Translations under genes and position numbers: made by a program
In this document: piece after piece, positions 10,691 to 63,218 of the stretch
Layout of the letters: the number at the start of each line of letters is the position of its first letter
Position numbering within the stretch: position 1 is the first letter of the stretch
The notes under the pieces: generated by a model
The model's input: the letters and a program-made list of their open reading frames with translations, nothing else
Database searches by the model: none
Told to the model about the DNA's origin: nothing
Assembly (NCBI GenBank): GCA_963815095.1
Contig: CAWFFH010000008.1
Location: 1 to 64,000 of the forward strand
DNA length: 64,000 nucleotides
Reading direction: 5' to 3'
Origin: Candidatus Bathyarchaeota archaeon
Lineage (GTDB): Archaea > Thermoproteota > Bathyarchaeia > Bathyarchaeales > Bathycorpusculaceae

Positions 10691-11662
10691 TTACTGTGTT
10701 ATCACAACTTTGAGAGGCTTCTCAGCTGGATTATCCACTATTTGCAAAGCTTTCTCAAAGTCGTCCAGCTTGAATTTGTGTGTTATCAGCCCCTTCACAT
10801 CAACCAGTTTTCGAGCAATTAACTCAACCGCTGCAGGGTACTCAATTGGTGAAATGTAAATCGTGAAAAACTGTGCTTCATCTGCATCTTCTAAGTTCAA
10901 GTAACCCTTAGATTCCCCGACTAACGCGACTTTGCCTACTTTTCGCACCAAAAACGGCGTCTGCTCCACAGCAGTTGTGTTTCCTGCGGCTTCAATTACA
11001 AAGTCAGAACCAATCTTGGTTAGTTTGCGGACAGTTTTGCGCACATCTGATTTTTTGGCGTTGATAACAGCGTCAGCACCGTACTTTTCTGCAAGCTCCA
11101 GTCTGTAATCCTCAAAATCCACCGCAATGACTCGGCACCCCTTCATCAACGCCACCTGCGTCATAAGCAAACCGATAGGCCCTTGCCCAATTACAGTCAC
11201 CCAATCACCCAAATTAGGCTTCAAGTGGTTTAACACTCTAAGCGCCAAAGCTACAGGCTCCACAATAGCAGCTTCTTCATCAGTTAGATTGGCGGGGATG
11301 GGAATAAGGCTTCGAGGAAGCATCGCTTTGGATTCCGCGAAAAAGCCATCTCTGGTCAAACCGTAGAATTTACCACGGACACAGTACGTTGGCAAACCTC
11401 GCAGACAGAAGTAACAATGCCCACAGTTTACGATTGGAACCATAACGGCCCGTTCGCCATTGTCTCCTCTTACTCCGCAAGCATCGTGCCCAATGATTCT
11501 TCCTTTCTTCATCCATTTCCAATCGCCTCGATAGAAATGCATGTCGGTTCCGCAGATGCTACCTGCTTTAAACTTGACAATCGCCCTGGCTCCTTTAACC
11601 ACGGGCTCAGGGACATCTTCGATTTTGATGGCCAGTGGTCCACGATAAACAGCAGCTTTCAA
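10691..11662 (-). CDS. Zn-dependent medium-chain dehydrogenase (sorbitol/threonine dehydrogenase-like)
   Basis: ICGTDMH, GHD (usually GHE), structural Zn CGHCYFC..C, VEP, GQGPIG Rossmann motif. Confidence 0.88.
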   Translation of the reverse strand: MKAAVYRGPLAIKIEDVPEPVVKGARAIVKFKAGSICGTDMHFYRGDWKWMKKGRIIGHDACGVRGDNGERAVMVPIVNCGHCYFCLRGLPTYCVRGKFYGLTRDGFFAESKAMLPRSLIPIPANLTDEEAAIVEPVALALRVLNHLKPNLGDWVTVIGQGPIGLLMTQVALMKGCRVIAVDFEDYRLELAEKYGADAVINAKKSDVRKTVRKLTKIGSDFVIEAAGNTTAVEQTPFLVRKVGKVALVGESKGYLNLEDADEAQFFTIYISPIEYPAAVELIARKLVDVKGLITHKFKLDDFEKALQIVDNPAEKPLKVVITQ

Positions 11663-13498: not shown

Positions 13499-13536
13499 TT
13501 TTCGGAAAGACAAAATTTAATTCCCTTCTTTTCTTT

Positions 13537-14301
13537 GTGATATGTATGGCTGATATAATCGTTCCAGCGCTTCAGCAAGCAATTAACTTAATCACTAGCG
13601 GAAACCCAGAAGTTTACGCTACAGTCTATAGAACAATCTATGTTGCGGGATTAGGAACTTTTCTTGCATGCCTCTGGAGCATTCCAATAGCTGTCCTTTT
13701 GGGTCTTTACAATTTTAGGGGAAAATGGTTCATCAAAGGTGTCTTTAACGCGTTAATAGGGATACCCACCGTGGCTTTAGGATTACTTTTGTTTCTGCTT
13801 TTGTCCAGACAGGGCGAATTGGGCTTTTTGAATCTGCTTTTTACCTTAAACGGTATCGCATTGGGGGAAGCAATACTGGTCACTCCAATCATTGTAACTT
13901 TTACTGCTAATGCCTTAAACACAGCTGATGCTCAGCTAAAAGATTTGGCGAAAACCCTTGGCGCATCAGGTTTTAGAACAAACTTGACTCTTGTTCGCGA
14001 AACAATCTGGTCACTGGTGCTTTCTGTGACAGCTTCTTTTAACCGCTGTTTCGGAGAACTCGGCATAGCGTCGCTTGTAGGTGGAAGTATACTTGGGGAA
14101 ACACGGGTCTTAACGACTTCGATAGCGGTTTGGACCAACTTTGGCAACTTCAGTTTGGCAATGGCTTATGGCATTGTCCTTATGGTAATCGTGGTAGCTT
14201 TAGCGGTTACCATAAGTCTGGTTGAACGTGTCAAAGATGAACGTGGGGAACTTAGAAAATTCATTCTGTTGCGCGGATTATTTTCAGGGGTTAAAAAATG
14301 A
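13537..14301 (+). CDS. tupB: Tungstate ABC transporter permease
   Basis: NALIGIPTVALGL, TLGA, FNRCFGELG..LVGGSI.GETRVLTTSIA. Confidence 0.85.
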   Translation: MICMADIIVPALQQAINLITSGNPEVYATVYRTIYVAGLGTFLACLWSIPIAVLLGLYNFRGKWFIKGVFNALIGIPTVALGLLLFLLLSRQGELGFLNLLFTLNGIALGEAILVTPIIVTFTANALNTADAQLKDLAKTLGASGFRTNLTLVRETIWSLVLSVTASFNRCFGELGIASLVGGSILGETRVLTTSIAVWTNFGNFSLAMAYGIVLMVIVVALAVTISLVERVKDERGELRKFILLRGLFSGVKK

Positions 14302-15014
14302 GTGTAATCCTAAAATTATCCGATATTAAGAAAAGTTACCGAAACGTCAAAGCGCTTAATTCAGTGTCATTTGAAATGGAAGGCGGCAAATTGATTGTTC
14401 TGCTCGGAGTCAACGGTGCAGGCAAGAGTACTCTTCTGAGAATTTTGGCTGGTTTAGAAGAGCCCGATTGCGGAACAATACAATTCAATGGTCAAATCTC
14501 AGACTCCAAATCGATTCGTCGATTTTCAACTTTGGTTTTCCAGAAAACCGTCATGTTTACCCTGAATGTCTATGATAATTTAGCATATGGTTTAAAAATC
14601 AGAAAAGTTCCGCATGAAGAAATCGCTAAAATGGTGCCTGAAGCGTTGGCAGCAGTTAGGCTTTCAGGGTTTGAGAAGCGGAAGGCGAAAAAACTTTCCG
14701 GCGGTGAACAACAGCGAATTTCGTTAGCGCGGGCTTTTTTGCTTAATCCTAATGTTTTGCTTTTAGATGAACCCACAGCCAACTTGGACCCAAATAGCGC
14801 AACCATAATCGAGAAAGCAATCATCGATAAAAAAAGCAGCCACCGAATCATAGTGATGGCTACTCATAACTTAAACCAAGCTCGAAGAATGGCAGATGAA
14901 ATCGTGCATATTCACAACGGAGAAGTCGTTGAAGTTGCGAAATCTGAAGATTTCTTTATGAACCCAAAAAGCGAGGTAACCCGCAAATTCATCAACGGAG
15001 AACTCGATTTCTAA
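14298..15014 (+). CDS. tupC: Tungstate ABC transporter ATPase
   Basis: GVNGAGKST, LSGGEQQR, LLLDEPT, H-loop; operon context. Confidence 0.85.
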   Translation: MSVILKLSDIKKSYRNVKALNSVSFEMEGGKLIVLLGVNGAGKSTLLRILAGLEEPDCGTIQFNGQISDSKSIRRFSTLVFQKTVMFTLNVYDNLAYGLKIRKVPHEEIAKMVPEALAAVRLSGFEKRKAKKLSGGEQQRISLARAFLLNPNVLLLDEPTANLDPNSATIIEKAIIDKKSSHRIIVMATHNLNQARRMADEIVHIHNGEVVEVAKSEDFFMNPKSEVTRKFINGELDF

Positions 15015-46596: not shown

Positions 46597-47313
46597 ATGA
46601 GAAGCGGAGAAAAATGGGGTAATCCTTCTACGCAGGTTATTATTGCCGCGTTGAATGAGGAAGAAGGAATTGGTCTAACCATCGCTGAGATGATTGATGC
46701 CCTAGGTGACCCGCAAGTGCTAGTGGTTGATGGCAAAAGCACCGATAGAACCGTGGAGGTGGCTAAGAATTTGGGTGCCCAACTCTTTGTCCAAGATGGA
46801 TTAGGCAAAGGTGACGCAATAGCCAAAGCAGTAGCAAACATAGATCCAACAGTTGATTATATTGTGTTAACCGACGCAGATTACACATATCCAGCAGTGT
46901 ATGTTCCTGAGATGATCAGGATTTTGGAGAAGTATCCTAAGGTAGGTATGGTCTGCGGTAACCGTTTTAATGGTTACGAAGAAAAAACGGCATTAAGCAG
47001 CATTTTTTATGTCGGTAATCGGTTTATAGCTTTTACCCACAACTTGTTGAATGGTGTCTCATTAACTGATCCATTGACTGGGCTACGTGTAGTGCGCGCG
47101 GGGATTCTTAGAAATTGGACGGTTCAGTCTAAGGGTTTTGATGTTGAAGTTGAGCTTAATCATTATGTAGAATGTGCTGGTTTTGGGATAGTGGAGGTTC
47201 CCATTAATTATCGAGAAAGACTGGGTCAGAAAAAATTAGGCATTAAAAATGGTGGCGAAATTTTTAAACGTATACTGCTAGAATTTGTTAATGAAAATAC
47301 TAAAATTGCATGA
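46597..47313 (+). CDS. GT2 glycosyltransferase (Dol-P-sugar synthase-like)
   Basis: ALNEEEGI, VVDGKSTDRT, GKGDA, DADYTY, DPLTG, EVPINYRERLG..KL. Confidence 0.88.
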   Translation: MRSGEKWGNPSTQVIIAALNEEEGIGLTIAEMIDALGDPQVLVVDGKSTDRTVEVAKNLGAQLFVQDGLGKGDAIAKAVANIDPTVDYIVLTDADYTYPAVYVPEMIRILEKYPKVGMVCGNRFNGYEEKTALSSIFYVGNRFIAFTHNLLNGVSLTDPLTGLRVVRAGILRNWTVQSKGFDVEVELNHYVECAGFGIVEVPINYRERLGQKKLGIKNGGEIFKRILLEFVNENTKIA

Positions 47314-47535: not shown

Positions 47536-48393
47536 TTAACGGGTTCTTGTTGCAAGGACAATGTATTGCGATCCGGTTGAGCGGAAAAATAGGTAGCCGC
47601 TGTCAGCGTATTCTTGCAGCTTCTGATTAATTCTTATTCCCACCCTGTCAGAGAACAACCGATAGCCAAAAAAAGTGAATGGTCCAAATCCTACACTTGC
47701 GCTTTTCACGACATTTAAACCTGCCTCGCAAAGATTATTGTTGAATGCTTTTGGAGTATATTGACTATAAGGTGGCGCATTGGTCCAGGGATTCCATGAA
47801 CTAAGTAACCCTGCTCTTTCAAGTTTACTCTTTATTAGCCATCGGACCTGTGCTATTGGTGGAAAAGTTTTGGGATCAAGTAATGTTGTGGCTCGTAATG
47901 CATTATCCATTGTCAGGACAATAAAACCGCCGGGTTTTGTGACTCTTATGATTTCAGTCAATGCCTTTTTGAAATCATGAAGCCAAGGGATTACTCCTAA
48001 AGCAATGATTAAGTCAAACGTTTGGTCCTTATAGGATAGCTCATGAATATCGCCTGTGCAAGCCCTGATCTTATCTAATAACCCCGTTTGTCTTGCATGT
48101 TCATTTGTTAGATCAACCATTGCTTGTGCATGGTCAATTCCTTCAATAAAAAATCCGCGCTTTGCAAGAGCGGCAGTCATGAACCCTGCTCCGCAACCGA
48201 TTTCAAGAACATGAGCAGTTCTTGGGAGCGATAATCCATCAATATAACTGAGGGCGACGGCCTGCCGCCTTTGATAAATTATTCCAGCAATGTCCTTCTT
48301 TTTGTACGTATCTCTCCAATATGTTGCCTGAGTATCGAAGAGTTCATCAACCAGCTTCTGCTGACGATCGTTTTGTGCTTTGGGTGAAGCCAA
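47536..48393 (-). CDS. Class I SAM-dependent methyltransferase
   Basis: VLEIGCGAG, FDLI, RVTKPGG. Confidence 0.85.
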   Translation of the reverse strand: MASPKAQNDRQQKLVDELFDTQATYWRDTYKKKDIAGIIYQRRQAVALSYIDGLSLPRTAHVLEIGCGAGFMTAALAKRGFFIEGIDHAQAMVDLTNEHARQTGLLDKIRACTGDIHELSYKDQTFDLIIALGVIPWLHDFKKALTEIIRVTKPGGFIVLTMDNALRATTLLDPKTFPPIAQVRWLIKSKLERAGLLSSWNPWTNAPPYSQYTPKAFNNNLCEAGLNVVKSASVGFGPFTFFGYRLFSDRVGIRINQKLQEYADSGYLFFRSTGSQYIVLATRTR

Positions 48394-48537
48394 TTAGCAA
48401 ACATCCCCTACTTCCCAACTATCGATAATCATCATGGCTTTAAACTATTCTTTGTTACTTCTTGACTCTATCCTTTTGTTCCTGAATCTATAGATAATTT
48501 TTTTGTAAATGCGTGTTTCCATCTATGGTGATAAAAC

Positions 48538-49371
48538 TTGATTGATTCTTTTCCTTCTTTAAATTTGCCACGAAAAGGGCAACTACATACCGATGCTTAT
48601 CTAAAATCGATCGGTGTTCCCGAAATAACTTCAGCGACCAGCCCGTTCGACCCTGGATATGATGCCTTAACGTTGGCGGGTCATCTTGAACAAAGTCACC
48701 ATCTTATATCGATTCTGAAGGTTTCAATGGCGTGTTGGATGATTGCAAACGAAGATGTTACTCGTCAGAAAATTGCAGTTGCTAAGAAATACCGCGTGCC
48801 CACAACTACGGGCGGCGGACCTTTTGAGGTAGCGTATGTGCAAGGTAAGCTACAGCAATACCTTGATCTTGTGGCCGATTTTGGATTTACGCGGATAGAA
48901 TGCGGGGAGGGGTTCACAGATATTTCCTTAGACGCTCGAGAGATTGTGAAAATGGCAAACGACCGTGGCTTAGAGGTTCAGTTTGAACTTGGGAAAAAAC
49001 ATACGGGCGCTTTTACTAAAAATGTAGTTGAAGCTTTGATTAGCCAAGGTGAGCGGTGGCTTGAGGCTGGAGCCGTTCAGTTGGTTGTAGAGGCGCGGGA
49101 GAGTGCGAAGGGCGTTGGGTTGTTTGATGATGAAGGGAATCTTAATGTTGGTTTCGCTGATCGTTTCGCAAATGCGTTTGGCCACAGTGTGGTCATGTTT
49201 GAAGCACCTAACAAGCCAAGTCAATTTGCTCTGTTAGATCACTTCGGTCGCCACGTTCATCTATGCAATGTTCGCCTTGAAGAGTTGTTGCGGGTGGAAA
49301 TTTATAGGCGAGGCCTTCACTCAGATGCTTTTAACAAAGAGAATTTGCGTCCCCATCTTCCGGTGGAATGA
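48538..49371 (+). CDS. comA: Phosphosulfolactate synthase (ComA family)
   Basis: FDPG, ILK, TGGGPFE, IECGEGF, ELGKK, VVEARES, MFEAPNK.SQ, FG..V.LCNV, VEIYRRGLHSD. Confidence 0.82.
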   Translation: MIDSFPSLNLPRKGQLHTDAYLKSIGVPEITSATSPFDPGYDALTLAGHLEQSHHLISILKVSMACWMIANEDVTRQKIAVAKKYRVPTTTGGGPFEVAYVQGKLQQYLDLVADFGFTRIECGEGFTDISLDAREIVKMANDRGLEVQFELGKKHTGAFTKNVVEALISQGERWLEAGAVQLVVEARESAKGVGLFDDEGNLNVGFADRFANAFGHSVVMFEAPNKPSQFALLDHFGRHVHLCNVRLEELLRVEIYRRGLHSDAFNKENLRPHLPVE

Positions 49372-49396
49372 AGCGGTATTAAGGAGAAGAGAGGTT

Positions 49397-50110
49397 ATGA
49401 GCAGAAAATCAGTTGCTATAGATTGTCTAAGCGAGAGTCTATGTCATTATGATGAAAGATGTGCGGTCATAGTTATCGATGTTATTCGTTCAATAACTGT
49501 AGCATCCACGATAGTTGAATCTGGAAGAAGATGTTTTTTTGCTCCTTCGATTGAGGCGGCATTTCTTTTTGCAAAACAGTTTGACAATCCGTTGCTGATT
49601 GGTGAAATGGGCGGGAGCATGCCCTATGGTTTTGACATTAATAATAGTCCGGTGGAAATTGAAAGCCGCAAAGATATTTTGCGACCTGCAATTCTGGTTT
49701 CTTCATCGGGGATACCGCTGCTTTATTCGTTGAGAGATTGCAATTCAGTTTACGTTGCTTGTCTTCGGAATTATAGTGCAACCATCAAGCATCTCGCTGG
49801 ACTTTACAATCGAGTAATAGTTCTTGGTGCCCCAACCCGGGGAGAGTTTCGTGAAGAAGATAAACTGTGTTGCGCACGGATTGCAGCTGGCCTCATCAAA
49901 GCTGGATATGCTTCTGAAGATGAAAAAACCACGGAGATTGTAAATCGTTGGGCAGAAAAGCCAGTTACGGTTTGTGGTGAAGGGAAAAGTGCTGAGTATC
50001 TCCGAAGATCTGGTCAAGCAAAAGACCTTGATTTTATTCTCAGCCACGTGAACGACCTTAACTCGCCACTTAAGATTAAGAACAATGAGATTGTTAAAAC
50101 ACCGGTTTAG
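49397..50110 (+). CDS. comB: 2-phosphosulfolactate phosphatase (ComB family)
   Basis: VIDVIRS.T, GEMGG..GFDINNSP, SSSG, ACLRN, EDKLC; start ATG49397. Confidence 0.85.
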   Translation: MSRKSVAIDCLSESLCHYDERCAVIVIDVIRSITVASTIVESGRRCFFAPSIEAAFLFAKQFDNPLLIGEMGGSMPYGFDINNSPVEIESRKDILRPAILVSSSGIPLLYSLRDCNSVYVACLRNYSATIKHLAGLYNRVIVLGAPTRGEFREEDKLCCARIAAGLIKAGYASEDEKTTEIVNRWAEKPVTVCGEGKSAEYLRRSGQAKDLDFILSHVNDLNSPLKIKNNEIVKTPV

Positions 50111-51365
50111 TCGCGGAGTGGAAAAGACGGTTAAACGTGAAAAGGTTACTGCAGAAGATACGAGCGTTCCAGTTGTCGTATTGTACACTTACCACTATGG
50201 TCAATTAGGCGTCTTGCGTAGTTTTGGAAGGCTCGGCATTGTAGTTCATGGTGTTGATCCAAATCCGCGGTCTCCCGGTCTGTTTTCCAGATATTGTCAG
50301 AAAAAATTCTTGTTTGATATAGACGCTGCACCCTCCCGCGCTTCTGTTCAATACTTATTAGATGTTGCCAAGAAAATTGGAAAACGTTCACTTCTGATTC
50401 ACACAACCGATAGTGGTGCAGGGTGGCTTGCAGACAACGCTGAAGCTTTGAGTGAAGGATACATTTTTCCGAAGCTATCTTCTCAGCTTGTTTTAGCTCT
50501 TGCCAACAAAAAAGAGATGTATTTTCTTGCCAAAAAGTATGGTGTTCCAACTCCCGAGGCGTGCTTTCCACTTTCGCTAAGCGATGTTGAAGAATACGTG
50601 AAGGATGCAGTTTTTCCGGTAGTTTTAAAGGAGCTTTATCGTGGAGGGTCACCCCGAGTTGGAAAAAGAATGTTCGTGGCAAAAACGAAAGCTGAACTTC
50701 TCAAGTTTTATAGCCAATGCGAAGATTCTTCGAACCCAAATTTTATGTTACAAGAGTATATTCCAGGTGGGGATGATTCGATTTGGATGTTTAACGGTTA
50801 TTTCGATGAAAAATCGGATTGCCTTTTTGGAATGACTGGACGAAAAATTCGTCAATCTCCCATTCATACTGGTGTGACCTCGCTTGGTGTTTGTTTGAAA
50901 AACCCATTAGTTGATGAAATGACGAGGCGCTTTATGAAAAGTATTGGTTACAAGGGGATTCTTGACATCGGATACAGGTACGATTTGAGAGATGGAAAGT
51001 ACAAGGTTCTCGATATTAATCCTCGTATAGGTTCAACTTTTCGGCTCTTTGTAGGCGCTAATGGGTTAGATGTTGCCCGCGCCCAATATTTAGATCTCAC
51101 TGGTCAATCAGTTCCTTCAAGTGAGCTTATTGAGGGGCGAAAATGGTTTGTTGAAGACAGAGATTCTGTTTCGAGTTTTCGGTATCACTATGAAAAAAGT
51201 CTAACCTTTAAACACTGGTTAGCATCATTTCGTGGCGTCCAAGAGAGTGCTTGGTTTGCTTGGGATGATCTTTTGCCGTTTTTCATGATGTGCGCCAAGT
51301 CTTCAAGAAAAGTGCTTTCTAAAGCAGACAATAATGCGTTAAATCCGTACAAACTTACTCCTTAA
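50085..51365 (+). CDS. ATP-grasp carboxylate-amine ligase (D-aspartate ligase-like)
   Basis: LRSFGRLG, SRYC, NKKEMY, FPVVLK, LQEYIPG, KIRQ.P, YKVLDINPR. Confidence 0.85.
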   Translation: MRLLKHRFSRGVEKTVKREKVTAEDTSVPVVVLYTYHYGQLGVLRSFGRLGIVVHGVDPNPRSPGLFSRYCQKKFLFDIDAAPSRASVQYLLDVAKKIGKRSLLIHTTDSGAGWLADNAEALSEGYIFPKLSSQLVLALANKKEMYFLAKKYGVPTPEACFPLSLSDVEEYVKDAVFPVVLKELYRGGSPRVGKRMFVAKTKAELLKFYSQCEDSSNPNFMLQEYIPGGDDSIWMFNGYFDEKSDCLFGMTGRKIRQSPIHTGVTSLGVCLKNPLVDEMTRRFMKSIGYKGILDIGYRYDLRDGKYKVLDINPRIGSTFRLFVGANGLDVARAQYLDLTGQSVPSSELIEGRKWFVEDRDSVSSFRYHYEKSLTFKHWLASFRGVQESAWFAWDDLLPFFMMCAKSSRKVLSKADNNALNPYKLTP

Positions 51366-51502
51366 ACTCTAAGGAAAACTCGCGAATCCTTTCTAAATGC
51401 TATAATTTAAGTTCTCTGTTTTCCTAATCTCTTCTTCTTATCAATTAAAGAACAAAAGTTATAATCCTCAACTAAGAATAATCTTTAACTTCAATTTATC
51501 TG

Positions 51503-52132
51503 GTGATTAAAATGGTATTTGCAAAAAAAGTTGTGTTGGCGGTGGGAGCCCATCCTGATGATATTGAATTAGGGTCTGGCGGGACAATCTATAAAGCGGT
51601 GCAAGCAGGGGCGCATGTTATTGCTTTGTATATGACAAGGGGCGGAAAAATCACTGACACTAATGTAAGAATGAGAGAAAGCACTGAGGCCATGAACGTT
51701 TTGGGCGTTAATGAAGTCTTTTTTGAGAATTTCCCTGACACGGAGATTCCAGATTCATTTGAAGCCATAAACTGTTTAGAACAATACGCCCTCAAATACC
51801 AACCCGATATCGTGCTAACACACTCAATTAACGATATACATCAAGATCACCGAAGAGTAGCTTGGCTTGCAATGTCTTCATTTAGGAACATACCGAAAGT
51901 TCTTGCTTTTGAAACCCCTAGAGTAAGACCTGCGGCTTTCTTGCCTACTTACTTTGTAAATATAACGGGCAGTGTTGACAAGAAATGGGAAGCCCTGCGA
52001 TGCCATGTTTCTCAAAACGAGAAAAGATATCTAGCATACGAATCCACAGTTAATCTTGCTTCTTTTAGAGGGAGCCAGGTTGGTATTGCTGCGGCAGAAG
52101 CCTTTGAAATTGTAAAATATGTAGAAGGCTAA
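51503..52132 (+). CDS. PIG-L/LmbE family N-deacetylase
   Basis: GAHPDDIELG.GG, R..E, D.HQDH, AEAF. Confidence 0.9.
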   Translation: MIKMVFAKKVVLAVGAHPDDIELGSGGTIYKAVQAGAHVIALYMTRGGKITDTNVRMRESTEAMNVLGVNEVFFENFPDTEIPDSFEAINCLEQYALKYQPDIVLTHSINDIHQDHRRVAWLAMSSFRNIPKVLAFETPRVRPAAFLPTYFVNITGSVDKKWEALRCHVSQNEKRYLAYESTVNLASFRGSQVGIAAAEAFEIVKYVEG

Positions 52133-52471: not shown

Positions 52472-53467
52472 TTGCAAACGAATAAGTTGAAAGTGGCAGT
52501 GGTTGGAGTAGGTAAGATGGGCTTAGTGCATGCTAGTATTTTTAACACTCTGCCCAATGTTGAACTTGTTGCATTATGTGATAAGAGTACTTTGATACGT
52601 AAATTCTGTAGTAAACTATTGTCTGGAGTTCATATAGTGGATGATATAACGAAAATATCTGACTTAGACATTGACATAGTTTGTGTAACTACCCCCATTC
52701 CTTCTCATTACTCAATTATCAACAGCTTCTGTTCCACCAAAAAGGCACCAAATATGTTTGTTGAGAAAACCCTTTCTTCTTCCTATTCAGATTCTGCAAA
52801 ACTGTGCGAATTGGTTCGGAATTCAGTAAGCGTTAACATGGTTGGTTATATGAAGAGGTTCGCCGTTACGTTCATAAAAGCTAAAGAACTGTTAGAACAA
52901 GGTGCTATAGGATCTACGTATTCTTTCGAAGCACATGCTTATTCATCAGATTTTTTTGGCCTAAAAAATAATCCTTCACATGTGACGTCGAGCCGGGGAG
53001 GCGTTCTTAGTGATTTGGGTTCACATGTTATTGATCTTAGTTTATGGTTTTTCGGAGATTTACAGGTTCAAACCGACCAGATCGATGCAAATGATATTCA
53101 AAACGCAGTAAAGTTTAAAGTCGCAAGCGGTGCCTCTGTTGATGGAATTTTTGATGTATCTTGGTGCAAGGAAGGTTATCATGTGCCAGAATTTGGGTTA
53201 TTAATCACCGGTTCTAAGGGTAAAATAGAGGTCGATGATGATGTAGTTGAGTTGTCGCCCGCTTCAGGACAATCAATCCGTTGGCATAGACATGACCTTA
53301 ATGATAATGTAGGTTTCTTACTCGGTGCTCCGGAATATTTCCGAGAAGATGATTATTTTGTTAAATCAATTTTGAATGGCGCTACTGCTGAACCTAGTTT
53401 TGCTACCGCTTCAAAAGTTGATTATGTAATCGAAAAGGTATTTGATGGAGCTAAAAAAAATGAGTAG
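52472..53467 (+). CDS. Gfo/Idh/MocA family oxidoreductase
   Basis: VVGVGKMG, VTTP..H, VEKT, VGYMKRF, GGVLSDLGSHVID. Confidence 0.88.
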   Translation: MQTNKLKVAVVGVGKMGLVHASIFNTLPNVELVALCDKSTLIRKFCSKLLSGVHIVDDITKISDLDIDIVCVTTPIPSHYSIINSFCSTKKAPNMFVEKTLSSSYSDSAKLCELVRNSVSVNMVGYMKRFAVTFIKAKELLEQGAIGSTYSFEAHAYSSDFFGLKNNPSHVTSSRGGVLSDLGSHVIDLSLWFFGDLQVQTDQIDANDIQNAVKFKVASGASVDGIFDVSWCKEGYHVPEFGLLITGSKGKIEVDDDVVELSPASGQSIRWHRHDLNDNVGFLLGAPEYFREDDYFVKSILNGATAEPSFATASKVDYVIEKVFDGAKKNE

Positions 53468-54353
53468 GAAACAACCGATTTTGCTGGTCGGGGACAATCC
53501 ATTTCATGGTATTAGCCATCTTTCTCAACAAAATGTTAAAAATAGAGGAACTGACGTTACCAGGGCAAAATACGCTTCTGACATTGTTAAAACCTCAATC
53601 GAAAATGGCGCCAATGGATTCATGTTTTCAGTAAGCGAAACAACTCTCTCAATACTAAATATGCTCCCTGAAAAGGAGCCGAAAAAACGGCTGCATCTTT
53701 ATGCACTTGTCCCTTATGCTTACGAATATGTTAGACTGGCCACTCATGAAGGGGGTCTTCCAGGATTGGCAAAGCGCTTTGCTAAAGAGGTATTGCGATC
53801 GGGAAATTTGAAAACTGTTGGTGTTGGATTAAAGGGTGTCTTGACGTCTGATCCAATTGATGTTATGAAAGCCTATCTTTCATATGAAATTATTAGAGTT
53901 AAAGCTTCTGCAAAGAATCGAGGTGTTTTGCGTTCTGTTTTGCTTCACGAAGTAATTACTGATATGGCTATAGCTCTCAATCTTGAAAGCTTGGTTAAGT
54001 CCTACATTAAGTTTATGAATGACCATGGAATAGAACCTGGATTTGAGACGCGCAATTTTTCCTATCTTGTGAAGAAGTTTAAAGAATGGGATATAGATTT
54101 TAAGGGAATAGTTCTGGCAGCTCCGTTTAACAAAATAGGTTTCTACATGAACCCTTCTAAGGATGAGTGTGAAAAGTCGCTTGCCGATGTTTCTGGGGGC
54201 ACTGTGATTATGATGAGTATTCTGGCGGCAGGTTACTTGAAACCCAAAGAGGCTATAGATTACGTTCTTGGGCTTCCAAATGCTAATGCAGTTGTTGTAG
54301 GCGTATCTAATGAGAAGCAGGCGCGTGAAACATTCAGTCTTCTTGGAACCTGA
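53442..54353 (+). CDS. Conserved hypothetical protein, probable TIM barrel
   Basis: LLVGDNPFHGISH, PFNKIGFYMNP, MSILAAG, VVVGVS. Confidence 0.6.
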   Translation: MMELKKMSRKQPILLVGDNPFHGISHLSQQNVKNRGTDVTRAKYASDIVKTSIENGANGFMFSVSETTLSILNMLPEKEPKKRLHLYALVPYAYEYVRLATHEGGLPGLAKRFAKEVLRSGNLKTVGVGLKGVLTSDPIDVMKAYLSYEIIRVKASAKNRGVLRSVLLHEVITDMAIALNLESLVKSYIKFMNDHGIEPGFETRNFSYLVKKFKEWDIDFKGIVLAAPFNKIGFYMNPSKDECEKSLADVSGGTVIMMSILAAGYLKPKEAIDYVLGLPNANAVVVGVSNEKQARETFSLLGT

Positions 54354-54442: not shown

Positions 54443-55669
54443 ATGACCTCTATTACTCTTTGCATGCTTGCTCCAGAATTTATTCCTGTCTGGGGCGGAA
54501 CAGGATCATATACTGTTGAATTGGTTAAGTCTCTCCCAAGCACTATGGATATTCATGTAGTTACACTGAAGCGTGACGTAGGTCTCTCCGCAAGAAACTC
54601 TTCTATCGATAATAATGTAGATGCAATAGTGAAAAGGTCTCTCAAAGTCCATTATTTGACCAAGTCTAGTGAGACATTTTTCTATAATCTTCCTTTTCAA
54701 CTTGCTTGTACCGCAAAAATTCCGGTACTTCACAAGAAGTTCGGCTTTGACATTATGCATTCGCATATGTGTCAGATGCCTGATGTATATTTAAAACTGC
54801 TAAATCAGCTGAAAATTCCGACTGTTGTTACTATTCATGGAACGATTCAAATGCTAAGAGATCATGCGATAATTGCACGCGATTTGTTTCATGATTTGGA
54901 ATCTGGTGAGAAATCTATTCTGCGTTTCTATCCAGTAATTAGTCAACTACAACAATTATACGTAAAAAGGGTATCCCGGTTTATTGCAGTTTCCAAAAAA
55001 ACTAAGGAGTTAGCTGTGGAACATTTTGGCGTTGACCCGAGCAAAATTAGTTTAGTATACAATGGTGTTGATGTTAATCTATTTCGAATGCCTGATGAAT
55101 CTGAACTTCTCAACAGGTATTCAAGCCCAAAAATTGTATACGTTGGGCGAATCATTTCCAAAAAAGGTATAGATATCCTCATCAAAGCGATGCCTGAGAC
55201 TTTGAAATCTTTTCCACATGCCTGTTTTGTATTTGTTGGAGGCGGTAACATTTCCCTCTACAAAGAAATGATAAAAAATAAAGGCATATCTGAGAAAAAC
55301 TATCTGTTTACAGGTCATATGGGTTATCTCGAACGAGCAAAAATATTCCGTGAAGCAACAGTATTTGTAAATCCTTCTTTTTTTGAGAACTGTTCCATTA
55401 GCATTCTTGAAGCAATGAGCAGCGGTTGTGCAGTCGTAGCAAGTAATGTAGGTGGCAATCCAGAGCTTATCCAATCTGGAAAGAATGGTTTATTGGTACG
55501 TGCATTTGATGATAAAGAGTTTGCAAGAGCGATAATTTCACTTCTAAAAGATGAGCATCTGAATAGAATAATTGGAGAGGAAGCAAGAAAAACCGTCGAA
55601 AGATCTTTTTCATCAACAAAATGTGCAAAAGACACATATGAAGTCTATAGACAAACCCTTGATTCATGA
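54443..55669 (+). CDS. GT4 glycosyltransferase
   Basis: PEF.P.WGG, NGVD, GRI..KKG, ENCSISILEAM. Confidence 0.9.
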   Translation: MTSITLCMLAPEFIPVWGGTGSYTVELVKSLPSTMDIHVVTLKRDVGLSARNSSIDNNVDAIVKRSLKVHYLTKSSETFFYNLPFQLACTAKIPVLHKKFGFDIMHSHMCQMPDVYLKLLNQLKIPTVVTIHGTIQMLRDHAIIARDLFHDLESGEKSILRFYPVISQLQQLYVKRVSRFIAVSKKTKELAVEHFGVDPSKISLVYNGVDVNLFRMPDESELLNRYSSPKIVYVGRIISKKGIDILIKAMPETLKSFPHACFVFVGGGNISLYKEMIKNKGISEKNYLFTGHMGYLERAKIFREATVFVNPSFFENCSISILEAMSSGCAVVASNVGGNPELIQSGKNGLLVRAFDDKEFARAIISLLKDEHLNRIIGEEARKTVERSFSSTKCAKDTYEVYRQTLDS

Positions 55670-55757
55670 TTTAAAAGTAATACAATAGAAATACTTTCGA
55701 AATTTGTCAATTTTGTAACAAAAACTCCGTAACATCCTGTAATTAGAATCCAATTAT

Positions 55758-56771
55758 GTGAGTAAATTAGTTATGGCTGAAAACAATAGCAATTCTCTTG
55801 AAACTCCAGCCATAAGCGTCATTGTGGCAACGAGGGGCGACAAGTTAGATTTCTTGAAAAACTGTCTTTTGTCACTTAAAAATCAGAAGTTCAGAAACTT
55901 TGAAATTATTGTAGTTTCAAAAAGGTTTCCAAAAGAACTAGAAGATTTGTTTGAAACCGAGAATATCAGATTTATTGAGGAAAAAGGATCGACATTAGGC
56001 GCCGCCAGAAATTTAGGGGTTATAAACGCTAAAGGCGAACTGGTTTCATTCATTGATGATGATGCAGAAGCCTCGGTTGACTGGCTTGGAAAAATATCTA
56101 AAACTTTTTCATCTTTCCCTTCATTGACTTCCTTAGGCGGACCACACTTTACACTCCAAGAAAAAACCAAAAAAAGTCCTTTAAATTATTTTGAAGGTTT
56201 GTTTTTTGAAGGTAATTCCCAAGTAACATATTTTGATAAATCAGCAATTGGGAAGATAGCTGGCTGCAATGTGACGTACAAGAAGTCTGTCTTTCTAGAA
56301 ACGGGCTGTTTGAACGAGCAATTGCGAACTTGTGAAGATTGGGATTTTAATAGACGGCTAGTTGAAAAAGGATACAGTTTACGTTATGATCCAGAAATTT
56401 GGGTTTTGCATCGTAGACAGGGCCTAAAGCATGCCTTCCAAGGCAGTTCAAGAAGTGCGCCGTTTTTCTTGTCAAGGAAGACTCTTAAACTTGCAAGATA
56501 CGAATCAATGATTGCCTACTTCTATGTAACGAATTTTCTTTTTATTTTGCTTCTTGTTATTCTGATCATTTCGCCATTGTTTTTTGTCTTGTTTTTCCTT
56601 ACAATTTTAGGTGGATATATAATATTTAATGCAGTGAGAACACATACTTATAACCGTAAAATTTTGTATTTTCCGTTAGTAATTTTATTTACAGGCGCGA
56701 GAATATTAGGTTTCTATTTTGGCTTGATCAAGTATGTGGCCTCAAAATTGCGTACTTCTTTTAAGCGATGA
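55758..56771 (+). CDS. GT2 glycosyltransferase with C-terminal TM helices
   Basis: ARNLG, FIDDDA, GCN, CEDWD. Confidence 0.88.
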   Translation: MSKLVMAENNSNSLETPAISVIVATRGDKLDFLKNCLLSLKNQKFRNFEIIVVSKRFPKELEDLFETENIRFIEEKGSTLGAARNLGVINAKGELVSFIDDDAEASVDWLGKISKTFSSFPSLTSLGGPHFTLQEKTKKSPLNYFEGLFFEGNSQVTYFDKSAIGKIAGCNVTYKKSVFLETGCLNEQLRTCEDWDFNRRLVEKGYSLRYDPEIWVLHRRQGLKHAFQGSSRSAPFFLSRKTLKLARYESMIAYFYVTNFLFILLLVILIISPLFFVLFFLTILGGYIIFNAVRTHTYNRKILYFPLVILFTGARILGFYFGLIKYVASKLRTSFKR

Positions 56772-56887
56772 TCTTCCCACAAATAAAATTTTTCTTCAAA
56801 TCGATAGTAAAAATTTCCAAGAGTTCTATTAATTAAAGAAATCCGACCAACGTTAATTTCTCCTTAAACTACATTAGTTGATCTCAC

Positions 56888-58015
56888 ATGCACGTTTGTA
56901 TGATTTCACGAGAATTTCCTCCTGTGACAGGTGGAATAGGCTATTTTGTTTATAATCTCTCAAAAGGGCTAGTCAAAAGGGGTCATAACGTTTCGATTAT
57001 TACTCGTGGATCTACTGGTAAAGTCGAGAAAAAATTGATAGACGGAATTAATGTATATAAAGCTACTTTCTTTCCGTTATATCCTTTTCATATGGCGTTG
57101 CATGGGTTCTTTGTTAATTCTCTTCTTAATTCTTTAAGTCCTGAGGTAAGCTTAGTTCATTTACACTCACCTTTAACTCCAAAAGTTAAGACTTCTTTAC
57201 CGGTAGTTATGACTGTTCATACCGCTATGAGGATTGACTCGAGGTATCATGAGGTAGTAGATCCTTACTCATTGGCGGAAAAAGTGCAATCGATGTATTT
57301 TTCGCCCCTTCTTGAATCTCAACTGTTAAGAATTTCAGATATAGTGACTGCTGTTTCTCCTTCCGTTGCTAATGAATTGACCGAATACGGAATAGATTCC
57401 AGTAAAGTTAAAGTAATGTGGAATGGTGTTAATGAAAAATCTTTTCCAACCAATAAAAATGAGAAATTGGAAAAATATGTATTGTACACTGGTGTATTGC
57501 GTGCTCGAAAAGGGCTTTTTGATTTAATTAAATGTGCAATCATAGTAAGTAAAATAATACCTGATGCAAAATTTGTTATTTGTGGTACCGGTCCTCTTCT
57601 TCAAAAGTTAAAGGAACAAGTTAAGAGCGCTGGGCTTGAACAGAAAGTAGTTTTCTTAGGTCGCGTAGATAGAAAGAAACTCATTAAAATATATCAAGGT
57701 GCTACGATATATGTTGTGTCTTCTATTTATGAAGGTCTTCCAACAGTTATTCTAGAAGCGATGGCTTGCGGTTTACCAGTTGTAGCCACTGATATAGGAG
57801 GCAATCGCGACTTGATTTCTTCTAATGTAAATGGGCTATTAGTTCCCCCCAGATCTCCTGAGATAATGGCACAAATGATAATGGAATTGTGGAATGATGA
57901 AAAATTGAGGAAGAAACTCGGCGATTGTGCTAGGAAAACTATTATGAAAAAGTACACATGGGATATGATAACTGACAATTTCATAAACGTTTACGAGTCC
58001 CTTCTCAAAAAATGA
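56888..58015 (+). CDS. GT4 glycosyltransferase
   Basis: EFPP..GG, NGV, RKG, EGLPTVILEAMACG. Confidence 0.9.
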   Translation: MHVCMISREFPPVTGGIGYFVYNLSKGLVKRGHNVSIITRGSTGKVEKKLIDGINVYKATFFPLYPFHMALHGFFVNSLLNSLSPEVSLVHLHSPLTPKVKTSLPVVMTVHTAMRIDSRYHEVVDPYSLAEKVQSMYFSPLLESQLLRISDIVTAVSPSVANELTEYGIDSSKVKVMWNGVNEKSFPTNKNEKLEKYVLYTGVLRARKGLFDLIKCAIIVSKIIPDAKFVICGTGPLLQKLKEQVKSAGLEQKVVFLGRVDRKKLIKIYQGATIYVVSSIYEGLPTVILEAMACGLPVVATDIGGNRDLISSNVNGLLVPPRSPEIMAQMIMELWNDEKLRKKLGDCARKTIMKKYTWDMITDNFINVYESLLKK

Positions 58016-58109: not shown

Positions 58110-58720
58110 ATGATTAAATCCAAAGAAGATTACGCATTCTATTTTGGCCCAGATCGACTTGCTCTAACTATAAAGCATAAGCGTCCACGGATATTTCAAG
58201 ATGAAATTTGGAAATTTGAACGTTTACTTCGAAAAGTCGAATATTTAGAAAACTGTGGAAATAATCGTTTAGATGCGATTATTCGTTTGCAGGCAAAATA
58301 TAGCCTTCAAAAGTTAAGTACACAATTTGGGTTTGCGATACCACGTAACGTGTTTGGGCCGGGCTGCAATTGCGCATGGAGGTCCCATAATAGTGCATTC
58401 AAAAGCCTTGGTAGGTGAAAATTGCAGGATTGATCGGTGCGTTTCTAGGTAGTATTCATTACCCTGCAGCTGCCCCCCAGATTGGTGATAATGTGTTTAT
58501 TGGACCCGGTGCGGTTATAGATGGTGATATTGAAATTGCAGCTGGAATAGCAATTGGAGCAAATTCGTATGTTAATAAATCTTTTAGAGAACCCGATATT
58601 ACAATTGCAGGTTGTCCAGCACGCAAGATATCCGATAAAGGTTCGCGCGAATGTTGGTTTCGATCTACTGAAATTTTGCGAAAGTTACGTTCAGAAGGTC
58701 AAATTAATAAGTTTAAATAA
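58110..58720 (+). pseudogene. Serine O-acetyltransferase-like hexapeptide acyltransferase, frameshifted
   Basis: GFAIPRNVFGPG / AIAHGGPIIVH..VGENCRI / APQIGDNVFIGPGA..IGANSYVNKSF..IAGCPA across three frames. Confidence 0.75.
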
Positions 58721-60465: not shown

Positions 60466-62042
60466 ATGGAAAAAAATAAGCTCCTCTTAATCCCTTTTTT
60501 TTGTAGGCCTTGCGCTTTTAATATATTCATGGTACTTGAGTTTTCCTTTATCGGTTGATTTTGTCAGTGACTCAATTTTTAATCATATTTCAATTTTGTA
60601 TTGGTTCAGTATTCCTTTATTGTTTACGTCGATGTTTCTGATTTCTATTAGTTTCAAAAACAAGTATTGGATATGGATAGTAACTATCAGCTTTGTATTT
60701 GTACTCTATTCATTATCGTACTTCTATTTCACAATGTCAACCGCCGATGCAGCTTTTTTCAGAGGGCTGACAGAAAATTTCATTAAAACGAATAGTTTGA
60801 ACGCTTCACAATATATCCATAGTTATTACCAGTGGCCTTCTTTTTTCCTTTTAGCTGGAATAACCACATTAATCAGCGGATTAAATTTGGCTAATTATGA
60901 ATTCATACTCTATGCAATTTTAGGGTTTCTACTTGCAACTGCTTTGTATATTTACTGCTTCAAAGGCATACAATCGCGGTGCTTTTTTCGCTGTTTCGGC
61001 CTTCTTTGTTGTAATGTTTTTGTTCTTGAATTATCAAGCCGTTCCATTCTCGCTTGCATTTGCGCTTCTGCTTGTCATGTTAGTTTTGGAGACAAGAGAA
61101 AAGGGTGCTGGTACCATATTGGCAATGTTCGTCTTGTATGTAAGTACAGTAATTACGCATGCTTTTGTTCCCCTTTTTTTTGTAATCTATTTACTCATTC
61201 GGAGCATTATAGGCAGAAGTAGACAGTATTTCGAATTTTTTATGTTGACATTAATCATCTATGTCTTAGCGCAAATAACATTTGTTGTATTTTCTTTTAA
61301 GAGTAATATTATTAGCGTTTTTGCCGCACCGAGCGAATATTCCAATGTCGCGGGGGCTACTCTTGCATCAACTTCCGTTGAGATTGATGCAATCCCCCAT
61401 TTCTTTTCTAGATGGATAACAATTGCATTTGCAATTTTATGTATTGCAGGTTTCGTTTTCCTATTATATAGAAGAAAGTTAAGGAAAATAGACACTGCTA
61501 TTTTTTTAACGGGAATTGTTTATTCGGGTTTAGGTGTTGTTCTTAATGTCTTAGGAACACGTGCAATATCACTACTCTTTATTCCAATCACATTGGGGGT
61601 AGCTTATCTTTTTCAAAGCAAGTTTAGAAAATACCTTAAATTTTTGTTTGTTATCCTGTTAGTTTTTGTTGTTTTCATTCCAATGCATCCTTCATTTAGT
61701 AGTTATCCAATAACTTTTCAAACAAAAGAGGATATTGCGACATCTAACTTCATGATCGAGAAATACGATTGGGCATCCAAAAGCATAGTAATTACTGATT
61801 CTTATAGGAGTTGGTATATACTTCCACAAGTACAGGGAAATACAGAAATCGATTCCAACCTCATTTCGCGCTTTGGGATATTAAACATTACTAAGTATGA
61901 TTCCATAGTATATTCGGTGGGTTTGGCAGAAAGTCTATACGCGTCTAATATTTCAATTGAAGCTACATCTCAACAAATAATGGATAAATTTGATATAGTT
62001 TATAATTCAGGTTTCTCTTACATTGCAACCAAAAGCAGGTAA
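60466..62042 (+). CDS. Polytopic membrane protein (GT-C/polymerase-like), frameshifted
   Basis: Overlapping hydrophobic ORFs 60536 and 60933; YYQWPSFF motif; glycan-cluster context. Confidence 0.55.
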
Positions 62043-62135
62043 AGTAATACTATAACAAATCTGTATCATCACTGATTTGTTAGAAACTCCATAGTTGAAT
62101 TTACGTACGATTATTCATAGCTTGGTTGGTCAAAT

Positions 62136-63218
62136 TTGAACATTCTGTATTATGGTGAGCCTAATTTAGCAAAAGGGGGCGGCGTAAATAAAGTCGCTTA
62201 CTACCTTCCCGAAGCTTTGAGAAAAAAAATAGGTGTCACTTACTTGCCAAGTATTAAGTCAAATAAAAATTTTCTAGAAATTTACTTAAAAGTATTTAGC
62301 CAGTTTGTCAAAAAAGAATTCGATATTATTCATTTCAATGCTAATCCTGCCTGGATTAATGGAAGTTCTATGTTGTTGAGATTTGCAAAGTTGACCCAAA
62401 CTCCCACGATTCTCAATATTCACGGTATTCCTCAGTTAGAACGGATAGCTGAAAAGGTTAATGATTCTGTTTCATTTTCTGATTGGATGCCTACTTTAAT
62501 CTATTGCAACTTGGCAGACCGAATAGTTGTCAACTCAGAATTTATGCGAAATAATGTTGTTGCATGGTATAGAGTAAATCCCCAAAAAGTTGTAGTTATC
62601 CCTAATGGTGTGGATCAAAAGATATTTACCAACTGTGATAATAGAATGCCCTTAGACGGTGATCCTTCTGTGTTGTATATTGGACACTTTTCAACGCTAA
62701 AAGGCGTTGATATCTTAATTCAATCGATAGCCCACCTTAAGTCTCAATTTCCAAATATTAAACTGCATCTCGTTGGGAGTGGCAATGATCACTATTTTTC
62801 GCTTATTGCGAAGAAGGAAGGAATTGAAAAAAATGTGGTTTTTCACGGTTGGGCAAAGCAACCGGTGGCAGCTTGTTACTATAAATCTGCGGATATTTGC
62901 GTTTTTCCTTCAAGGCATGAAGGTTTTGGGTTAGTTGTTCTTGAAGCTATGGCTTCAGGAATACCCATAATAGCTTCGGATATTCCAAGTTTTAGGGAAA
63001 TAATCTCTGATGGAGTAGATGGCAAGCTATTCAAAACCGAGGATTCTGGTGCCTTGTCAAAGGCAATAGTTAATTTAAGCCAAGATCCTCAACTGAGAAA
63101 AGAATTATCTCTTAATGCATATCAAAAAGCTTCACAATACAGCTGGGAAAACATAGCCGACAAATACATTCTGTTGTACAAATCCTTACTCAATTGTGCT
63201 TCTATAAATTACAATTAA
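62136..63218 (+). CDS. GT4 glycosyltransferase
   Basis: IPNGVD, KGVD, EGFGLVVLEAMASG. Confidence 0.9.
   Translation: MNILYYGEPNLAKGGGVNKVAYYLPEALRKKIGVTYLPSIKSNKNFLEIYLKVFSQFVKKEFDIIHFNANPAWINGSSMLLRFAKLTQTPTILNIHGIPQLERIAEKVNDSVSFSDWMPTLIYCNLADRIVVNSEFMRNNVVAWYRVNPQKVVVIPNGVDQKIFTNCDNRMPLDGDPSVLYIGHFSTLKGVDILIQSIAHLKSQFPNIKLHLVGSGNDHYFSLIAKKEGIEKNVVFHGWAKQPVAACYYKSADICVFPSRHEGFGLVVLEAMASGIPIIASDIPSFREIISDGVDGKLFKTEDSGALSKAIVNLSQDPQLRKELSLNAYQKASQYSWENIADKYILLYKSLLNCASINYN

Follow-up and report, generated by a model that had tools for sequence, protein, structure and literature searches.

In the coenzyme M biosynthesis of class I methanogens, ComA joins phosphoenolpyruvate (PEP) and sulfite to give phosphosulfolactate, from which ComB forms sulfolactate (PMC9457059). 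Genes for members of both enzyme families stand together at positions 47536–52132 of the DNA studied here, the first 64,000 nucleotides of contig CAWFFH010000008.1 from an uncultured soil archaeon, Candidatus Bathyarchaeota (assembly GCA_963815095.1), referred to below as the window, and are accompanied there by genes for an ATP-grasp ligase, a PIG-L de-N-acetylase and a methyltransferase (MT). Among the described systems closest to this arrangement, YitD and YitC are the Bacillus subtilis homologs of ComA and ComB that serve spore sulfolactate, and we know of no ligase or glycan context for this pair. In bacillithiol and mycothiol biosynthesis (BshA/BshB/BshC and MshA/MshB/MshC), a family 4 glycosyltransferase (GT4) and a PIG-L enzyme are followed by a ligase that acylates the freed glucosamine amine. 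In the bacterial Arn pathway, which tailors lipid-linked sugars, the family 2 glycosyltransferase (GT2) ArnC acts first and the deformylase ArnD then acts on undecaprenyl-phosphate-Ara4FN. Finally, ATP-grasp ligases that couple small acids to amines on larger acceptors are represented by enterococcal D-aspartate ligase, PylC and the L-amino-acid ligases.

The window locus resembles each of these systems in part. Its ComA and ComB belong to the same families as the methanogen enzymes (PF02679 and PF04029, both over the cut-offs) and presumably share their chemistry, but the genes lie in an operon with ATP-grasp and MT genes inside glycan loci, ComC, ComDE and methyl-coenzyme M reductase (MCR) have no match, and the ComA falls into a separate clade. 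With YitD/YitC it would share a use of ComA and ComB outside coenzyme M, although the window ComA is a far relative of the B. subtilis protein. The logic of bacillithiol and mycothiol biosynthesis recurs in the succession of GT4, PIG-L and ligase, whereas here the ligase is of the ATP-grasp type, the context is that of polymer biosynthesis, the proposed acid is a sulfonate hydroxy acid, and BshC has no match. As in the Arn pathway, a GT2 that resembles polyprenyl-phosphate sugar synthases is encoded with a de-N-acylase, but this deacylase is a PIG-L and not a CE4 protein, and re-acylation by an ATP-grasp enzyme is proposed. The small-acid ligases share the fold of the window ligase (Foldseek matches to 4ffr/4ffl, 3vot and 4wd3 at E ~1e-14), sister loci of the window ligase carry an Asp/Glu racemase gene in place of ComA and ComB, and JGI gives many relatives the name 'D-aspartate ligase'; the structures match at only 12–18% identity, and sulfolactate with an amino sugar would be a new pair of substrates.

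The genes in question, read from the open reading frames (ORFs) and their Pfam and NCBIfam matches, are:

47536–48393, minus strand: class I SAM-dependent MT (PF08241, E 4.2e-22)
48538–49371, plus strand: ComA family, putative (2R)-phospho-3-sulfolactate synthase (PF02679, E 7.7e-49)
49398–50110, plus strand (longest ORF 49268–50110): ComB family, putative 2-phosphosulfolactate phosphatase (PF04029, E 4.1e-30)
50085–51365, plus strand: putative ATP-grasp carboxylate-amine ligase (PF02786, weak match, E 1.4e-5, 25.1 bits against a cut-off of 19.8)
51503–52132, plus strand: PIG-L/LmbE-family de-N-acetylase (PF02585, E 2.4e-26)

We lean slightly towards the reading that sulfolactate, possibly methylated, is made by these enzymes and ligated to a glycan building block. 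ComA would add sulfite to PEP and ComB would remove the phosphate to leave free 3-sulfolactate, a chemistry that is established for the two families. The ATP-grasp enzyme would then activate the carboxylate with ATP and attach sulfolactate to one of the units from which a surface glycan is built. PIG-L would take the acetyl group off an N-acetylglucosamine (GlcNAc) glycoside, possibly dolichyl-phosphate-linked GlcNAc supplied by an AglJ-like GT2 encoded upstream, and the free glucosamine amine would be the most likely acceptor here; as an assignment for the window archaeon, this acceptor is put forward tentatively, with the balance somewhat on the other side. The resulting N-(3-sulfolactyl)-glucosamine unit would enter the cell-surface glycan through the neighbouring GT2 and GT4 enzymes, and the MT would add a methyl group at an unspecified position. 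For the wider claim we see about even chances: that MT, ComA, ComB and ligase form a mobile cassette, spread from Bacteria to Bathyarchaeia and found under nine phylum labels in soil and peat, which installs an N- or O-linked, possibly methylated 3-sulfolactyl C-sulfonate on surface glycans and exopolysaccharide (EPS).

The preliminary description of this locus had reported tightly coupled comA, comB and ATP-grasp genes, a PIG-L gene next to them, a divergent SAM methyltransferase and GT2/GT4 genes around, and ORFs and family matches agree with it throughout: the order within 47536–52132 is confirmed as the divergent MT followed by ComA, ComB, ATP-grasp and PIG-L, and the presence of the trio with PIG-L among GT2 and GT4 genes is a real observation. 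The MT gene is divergent from ComA in the window and has the same orientation as ComA in bacterial loci. ComB probably starts at the ATG at 49398, which is preceded by GGAG and lies 26 nt past the ComA stop, and the start of the ATP-grasp ORF overlaps the ComB end by 26 nt. A look-up of RNA data sets listed none for 47536–52132.

The ComA, the only one in the whole genome, clears the Pfam gathering threshold by a wide margin (166.8 bits, cut-off 25.2; profile positions 11–243 of 243 are covered) and falls short of the NCBIfam equivalog cut-off (TIGR03849, arch_ComA; 170.1 against 280 bits). By these scores it is a member of the family and not an assured equivalog of the methanogen enzyme. Against the Methanocaldococcus jannaschii ComA chains 1qwg and 24fo it scored 121 bits (E 4e-34), with an alignment of 225–230 residues in which the long conserved blocks of the family are retained; the comparison was made at the level of whole blocks. 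The ComA-family member of B. subtilis (PDB 1u83) is a far relative (52.8 bits), and the window ComA is closer to the methanogen enzyme than that member is. ComB likewise exceeds its Pfam cut-off (105 against 26.4 bits) and stays below all NCBIfam equivalog models (best 73.7 against 235 bits).

For the ligase, the AlphaFold model (pLDDT 77, pTM 0.79, built with 13 aligned relatives) confirmed an ATP-grasp fold, with at least 500 PDB matches at E ≤ 0.001. Foldseek placed it at E ~1e-15 to PurK, biotin carboxylase, L-amino-acid ligases and PylC; these neighbours are generic ATP-grasp proteins at only 12–18% identity and gave no hint of the substrate, and a PDB sequence search with the ligase returned just weak carboxylase matches. 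At E ≤ 0.001, at least 3845 relatives were found among 8000 candidates scored. Those relatives carry the names 'D-aspartate ligase' or 'carboxylate--amine ligase' in the JGI and source records, and the former name points the same way as a predicted ligase of a small acid to an amine. The PIG-L protein exceeds its Pfam cut-off (93.2 against 28.2 bits), and its translation contains AHPDD and HQDH, which we take to be the metal-binding and catalytic motifs of the family.

The host genome (2.69 Mb, 9 contigs, 98.45% complete) offers no sign of coenzyme M use. No match to ComC-family proteins (Ldh_2, PF02615), to the alpha subunit of sulfopyruvate decarboxylase (ComDE, TIGR03845) or to MCR alpha (PF02249) was obtained from the whole genome, while the methanogen controls were positive; comC and comDE had likewise not been found in the window. 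Coenzyme M is therefore not the product, and the coenzyme M pathway was rejected as an explanation of the locus, as the preliminary description had supposed.

The association of the three genes was then assessed across genomes. The ligase-anchored survey covered species-representative genomes, in which 369 encoding stretches were recognised and the best 80 loci were used; a gene counted as present in a locus when tblastn with the corresponding window protein gave E ≤ 1e-8 and at least 50% coverage. ComA was present in 73 and ComB in 72, and ComA lay within 4 kb of the ligase in 72. The loci are labelled Acidobacteriota (43), Bathyarchaeota (14), Ignavibacteriota (6), Chloroflexota (5), Bacteroidota (4), Pseudomonadota (3), Gemmatimonadota (2), Methanobacteriota (1) and Chlorobiota (1), which makes nine phylum labels, and one is unlabelled. 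Identity of the window ComA to cassette ComAs of other phyla was 58–92%, and the closest public locus, L002, is labelled Bathyarchaeota and has a ligase 97% identical to that of the window. An MT homolog was found in the flank of 48 of the 80 loci, usually directly upstream of ComA, and the MT thus belongs to the cassette and is more than a mere divergent neighbour.

A second survey, anchored on ComA, took 201 genomes from the class of a Terriglobia host. Cassette-type ComA occurred in 9 of them at 11 places, 10 of which were fetched. Nine of these 10 continue with ComB (absent in the L022 type) and then an adjacent ligase, and the tenth, L095, has a divergent ATP-grasp gene some 1 kb further downstream (PF15632, E 2.8e-7); L096 duplicates L022 and does not count as an independent case. 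The adjacency of ComA, ComB and ATP-grasp is more than chance, since it recurs in 71 of the 80 ligase-anchored and 9 of the 10 ComA-anchored loci. These counts also bear on the idea that the pathway ends with free sulfolactate, kept as a solute or store like that of Bacillus spores, with the ligase, deacetylase and glycan genes as unrelated neighbours. ComA and ComB alone suffice for sulfolactate, and B. subtilis spores accumulate it; however, the ligase adjoins in nearly all loci of both surveys and across phyla, the ComA and ligase trees are congruent, and the genes overlap or nearly abut, which leaves a free end product highly improbable.

Seven of the 80 loci have no ComA beside the ligase: L004 and L070 end at a contig edge just upstream, and L012, L013, L050, L075 and L076 have full flanks. 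The genome of L012 encodes a cassette-type ComA at another place, and the genomes of L013, L075, L050 and L076, for which completeness is not given, have no ComA match. A further Bathyarchaeota locus, L073, has intact ComA, ComB and PIG-L genes but a ligase region (10052–11215) that falls into three short ORFs; this ligase may be a pseudogene or reflect an assembly error.

The genomic surroundings point to surface glycans in several lineages. For this comparison, 1374 ORFs of the loci were clustered and representatives were annotated. In Terriglobia, the cassette (in the order MT, ComA, ComB, ligase) sits in an EPS operon, with the priming transferase gene before it and the gene of a multi-pass membrane protein behind it. 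Upstream stand Poly_export, Wzz, a pepcterm-ATPase-like AAA+PEGA protein, a tyrosine kinase, a NusG-like protein, a UDP-sugar dehydrogenase, an epimerase and the EPS priming glycosylphosphotransferase (TIGR03025, 434.7 bits, over the cut-off); downstream follow the multi-pass membrane protein, an APH-like kinase, an FkbM MT, a GT4, Wzy_C, a beta-helix protein, a CE4 deacetylase, a further GT4 and WecG. The multi-pass membrane protein has no family match, and from its position alone our guess is a flippase. Genes near the cassette in Ignavibacteria and Bacteroidota encode, among others, a CE4 deacetylase, FemAB-like GNAT proteins, an AMP-binding enzyme and a GT2. Other Bathyarchaeota loci have an AglJ-like GT2 and DUF1616 upstream and PIG-L downstream, after which the content varies (membrane GT2, RmlD-like reductase, GT4); a shared core in differing surroundings is as expected of a tailoring module in variable glycan clusters.

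At least 59 of the 80 loci contain a homolog of one or more reference glycan genes, a lower bound for which only a small reference set was counted. The fixed position inside co-oriented EPS operons is the stronger argument. In several lineages the cassette lies among glycosyltransferase genes, and in bacteria a priming transferase, a Wzy_C polymerase-like protein and export genes are also present. The recurrence of the trio in EPS or glycan loci of Terriglobia, Ignavibacteria, Bacteroidota and Bathyarchaeota thus upheld the expectation that it is conserved near glycan genes elsewhere.

In the window itself, the cassette is surrounded by the following genes:

46597–47313, plus strand: GT2, AglJ-like or dolichyl-phosphate hexose transferase-like (PF00535, E 7.3e-16)
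52472–53467, plus strand: GFO/IDH/MocA oxidoreductase (GFO), candidate sugar 3-dehydrogenase (PF01408, PF22725)
53442–54353, plus strand: soluble protein of 303 amino acids, predicted TIM barrel (model pLDDT 74)
54443–55669, plus strand: GT4
55758–56771, plus strand: GT2
56888–58015, plus strand: GT4 (Pfam matches over 54443–58015: PF00534, PF13439, PF00535)
60536–61222, plus strand: membrane protein ORF with 4 hydrophobic segments (hydropathy count)
60933–62042, plus strand: membrane protein ORF with 9 hydrophobic segments (hydropathy count), overlapping the ORF at 60536–61222
62136–63218, plus strand: GT4 (PF00534, E 5.7e-41)

The first of these, the AglJ-like GT2, scored below the cut-offs of TIGR04182 (AglJ, 138.7 bits) and NF041391 (93.9 bits); it is kept upstream of the cassette in Bathyarchaeota loci, and its homolog cluster (cluster 18) is represented in 11 loci. 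The GFO gene reached 76 bits with the archaeal UDP-GlcNAc 3-dehydrogenase model NF040723, below the cut-off, and its end overlaps that of the TIM-barrel gene; the pair was found in 6 other Bathyarchaeota loci. The TIM-barrel product has no Pfam or NCBIfam match, and the Atlas gives only 'hypothetical protein' clusters for it. Foldseek placed its model near a mix of aldo-keto reductases, IGPS and the C-glycoside-cleaving enzyme DgpB-C, all as weak matches (E 3e-5 to 1e-4), and the two genes may form a 3-keto-sugar-processing pair. At 58110–58720 two short ORFs abut (102 and 101 amino acids), and the match of the second one to sugar or serine acetyltransferases (E 3e-9) is confined to their C-terminal hexapeptide portion; they may be a split or frameshifted acetyltransferase gene of the glycan cluster. 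Neither membrane ORF in 60536–62042 has a family match, and 60536–63218 is the downstream end of the glycan cluster inside the window. Upstream of 46597 lie the housekeeping genes pyrI, RIO kinase, GatD/GatE and an Elp3-like protein. Farther upstream, 4250–9925 holds an ORF of 1891 amino acids that is unrelated to the cassette, with DUF4011, AAA_11/AAA_12 helicase domains, an MTES_1575 restriction-endonuclease-like domain and DUF3320. ABC transporter genes occupy 12101–15014; the first encodes a PBP_like_2 binding protein whose N-terminus is long and of low complexity, the next a permease, and the substrate may be phosphate-like or another oxyanion.

With GT4, PIG-L and ligase genes in one cluster, every enzyme type required for a bacillithiol-like soluble compound is at hand. 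According to this explanation, a GT4 would couple UDP-GlcNAc to the hydroxyl group of sulfolactate, PIG-L would deacetylate the product and the ATP-grasp enzyme would add an amino acid, giving a thiol or solute of the X-GlcN-sulfolactate type. Sulfolactate resembles malate in shape and is its sulfonate analogue; the best NCBIfam match of the window PIG-L is BshB1 (TIGR04001, 92.6 bits), and BshA and MshA are among the better matches of the three GT4s (101.9–125.2 bits; BshA 101.9–115.6). These scores, however, lie far under the equivalog cut-offs (182.5 for BshB1, 273.7 for BshA, and 462.5), the genome has no BshC match (TIGR03998), and the GT4 genes beside the cassette are not conserved among Bathyarchaeota loci. 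Moreover, the bacterial trio stands in EPS operons between priming transferase genes and genes for multi-pass membrane proteins or polymerases, without PIG-L. We therefore considered a bacillithiol-type pathway unlikely, given the absent BshC and the Bsh model scores below cut-off, and a soluble product of this kind has a small residual probability.

The link between ligase and deacetylase was followed in the Bathyarchaeota-labelled loci, where PIG-L comes after the ligase in 13 of 14. These 13 include L012 (10013–16946) and L013 (9129–18272), whose ligases are 64–65% identical to that of the window and sister to the other Bathyarchaeota ligases, with no ComA or ComB beside them. In these two loci the ligase is followed by a gene of the octopine/nopaline (opine) dehydrogenase family, a different MT, an Asp/Glu racemase, PIG-L, a GT2 and a GFO gene, which may constitute a parallel tailoring pathway with a D-amino acid or an opine-type acid. 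The ligase–deacetylase pair persists while the acid-supply genes change, and this fits a ligase that joins a small acid to a deacetylase-exposed amine. In the Chloroflexia loci L075 and L076, the ligase lies beside an ornithine-cyclodeaminase-family gene and a FemAB-like gene.

As to the acid itself, a gene of the LarA_N family (2-hydroxy-acid/lactate racemases) occurs in the cassette in 5 of the 80 loci and also in L098 and L099. The loci are L018 (6554–7936), L035, L042, L045, L048, L098 and L099, and the gene lies inside or adjoining the cassette. Its presence is consistent with a free 2-hydroxy acid intermediate, and suggests that this acid is racemised in the organisms that bear it. The Ignavibacteria locus L016 (5129–11281) combines the cassette with a divergent second ATP-grasp gene, an Ldh_2 gene (ComC-like, PF02615, E 2e-106) and a FemAB-like GNAT/ATP-grasp fusion of 903 amino acids; these additions may extend the pathway through sulfopyruvate or cysteate.

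Such extended loci are relevant to a different linkage from the amide. Ester-forming ATP-grasp enzymes exist, and the enzyme could activate the carboxylate of a uronic or amino acid for attack by the 2-hydroxyl of sulfolactate, with an ester as product (compare the D-Ala-D-lactate ligases); alternatively, sulfolactate could first be converted, for example to cysteate, and joined through the new amine. UDP-glucose/ManNAc dehydrogenase genes are found in 13 loci (cluster 15), the Ldh_2 gene of L016 lies beside the extra ATP-grasp gene, and the FemAB-like genes and additional (tandem or second) ATP-grasp genes of several loci hint at chains with more than one step. On the other hand, the Pfam and NCBIfam scans revealed no uronic-acid-forming gene adjoining the cassette in the window, the host genome has no Ldh_2 match, and PIG-L is tightly linked to the ligase in the Bathyarchaeota loci. 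Combined, these observations make a different linkage unlikely.

Several observations weigh against the proposed synthesis of sulfolactate and its ligation to a glycan unit, or against parts of it. ComA and ComB both stay below the NCBIfam equivalog cut-offs, and the 59 of 80 loci with glycan genes are given without a matched random-locus control. The partners of the cassette also vary. PIG-L was found in none of the 66 non-Bathyarchaeota loci and a CE4 deacetylase in only 12 of the 66, and therefore a de-N-acetylated amine acceptor is not a conserved feature of the cassette; given the UDP-sugar dehydrogenase genes of the Terriglobia loci, the partner could be a uronic acid. Genomes without a ComA match (G406, G407, G408 and G203) also encode close relatives of the ATP-grasp enzyme, and the ligase family is therefore not tied to sulfolactate. 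The loci of the L022 type lack ComB, and a Bathyarchaeote locus in genome G204 (L100; G204:C6:38800-55600) holds MT, ComA and ComB in a glycan locus without the ligase.

Most directly, the supply of sulfite is in doubt. The host genome has no match to ATP-sulfurylase, PAPS_reduct (PF01507) or NIR_SIR, with the PAPS_reduct control positive in all 14 control genomes, archaea included, and clear sulfite-gene matches were also absent in the Bathyarchaeota hosts G463, G464 and G465 and in the Bacteroidota-labelled G202. A recognisable sulfite source was thus lacking in four of the four Bathyarchaeota hosts examined, while the Terriglobia host G201 has a PAPS reductase and a sulfite reductase. In the archaeal hosts, either sulfite is imported or made by an undescribed route, or the archaeal enzyme takes another nucleophile.

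The last option is a rival explanation in its own right: at least in archaeal hosts, a ComA-like enzyme would combine a nucleophile other than sulfite with PEP, and a different 3-substituted lactate would be attached. It draws on the four Bathyarchaeota hosts without matches to the sulfite genes, on the equivalog score of the window ComA and on the long branch that separates the cassette ComAs from other ComA types. Against it stand the 121 bits to M. jannaschii ComA with the conserved blocks kept, the greater nearness of the window ComA to the methanogen enzyme than that of the B. subtilis member, and the sulfite-forming genes of the bacterial host G201. Furthermore, methanogens with ComA or cysteate synthase also require sulfite, for which some of them have no textbook pathway (in part PMC9457059). 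We regard another nucleophile as rather improbable.

As for the amide link between sulfolactate and a de-N-acetylated sugar, which the preliminary description had proposed, the assignment stood in part. The trio near glycan genes, the lack of coenzyme M use and the PIG-L gene of the Bathyarchaeota loci agree with it, whereas the absence of PIG-L elsewhere and of an archaeal sulfite route do not.

Two of the variant loci deserve a separate remark. In the Terriglobia lineage of L022, L092 and L096, the ligase directly follows ComA, and the locus yielded no ComB; a phosphatase encoded elsewhere may take its place, or the step may be omitted. L100 is neighboured by an RmlD-like gene, GT4 genes, two hexapeptide transferases and a GT2, and the sole close ligase found in the G204 genome is that of L012, on a different contig.

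The distribution of the genes points to an accessory character. No ComA was found in 11 other genomes of the same genus, and a close ATP-grasp gene was present in none of 60 other genomes of the family (in this sample of 61, in the window's genome only). Of the 201 genomes of the class sample that includes these members of the genus, only 15 encode any ComA. Seven further ComA places of this sample were examined, and only G146:C69 is cassette-type, with ComB and ligase adjoining; the other six ComAs are 24–31% identical to the window ComA and have neither ComB nor ligase beside them.

A ComA tree was built from 70 rows (63 clustered cassette ComAs including that of the window, and 7 of the class survey; it omits the ComAs that did not pass ORF clustering). 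All cassette ComAs, that of the window among them, lie on one side of a long branch, apart from other ComA types. The Bathyarchaeota sequences make up a single group (SH-aLRT 90), nested among rows with Methanomicrobiales, Ignavibacteriota, Bacteroidota and Acidobacteriota labels. The ligase tree, with 80 rows and a midpoint root, is congruent with the ComA tree, and its Bathyarchaeota group has an SH-aLRT of 99; the rows nearest to Bathyarchaeota carry Ignavibacteriaceae, Bacteroidota, Chlorobiota and Methanomicrobiales labels. Since the trees are congruent and the identity ranking across loci is the same for ComA, ComB and ligase, the cassette moved as a unit. It is accessory and mobile, and occurs in polysaccharide loci that are unrelated in their other genes. 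The rooted ComA tree is consistent with a transfer from Ignavibacteriota/Bacteroidota-related bacteria into Bathyarchaeota, a direction not settled with this outgroup, which is distant and long-branched. The trio is also present on L019, an 8.9-kb contig labelled Methanomicrobiales, with a ComA 79% identical to that of the window; it adjoins the Bathyarchaeota and Ignavibacteriaceae rows in both trees and may be a mis-binned contig or a second archaeal recipient.

The preliminary description knew of no described pathway of this kind, and none was found in the literature searched, which likewise yielded no paper on a ComA–ComB–ligase cassette or a sulfolactyl glycan (supplements and subscription journals lay outside its scope). 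The nearest case was an ATP-grasp aminoacyl ligase in a Clostridium glycan locus, with no sulfonate (PMC4000134).

Acidic groups govern the binding of water, metals, minerals and phages by microbial surface polymers. If the proposal holds, the cassette would add a new class of anionic decoration to glycans, distinct from sulfate esters and sulfoquinovose, and would give the coenzyme M enzymes ComA and ComB a second physiological role outside coenzyme M and spores. It would also define substrates for a large uncharacterised ATP-grasp family, introduce a new sulfonate into the organosulfur cycle and constitute a previously unrecognised biological sulfite sink. For the abundant soil and peat Terriglobia, Ignavibacteria and Bathyarchaeia, it would mean a permanently charged, hydrolysis-resistant C-sulfonate on EPS, which would matter for soil aggregation, the binding of metals and the pools of organic sulfur.

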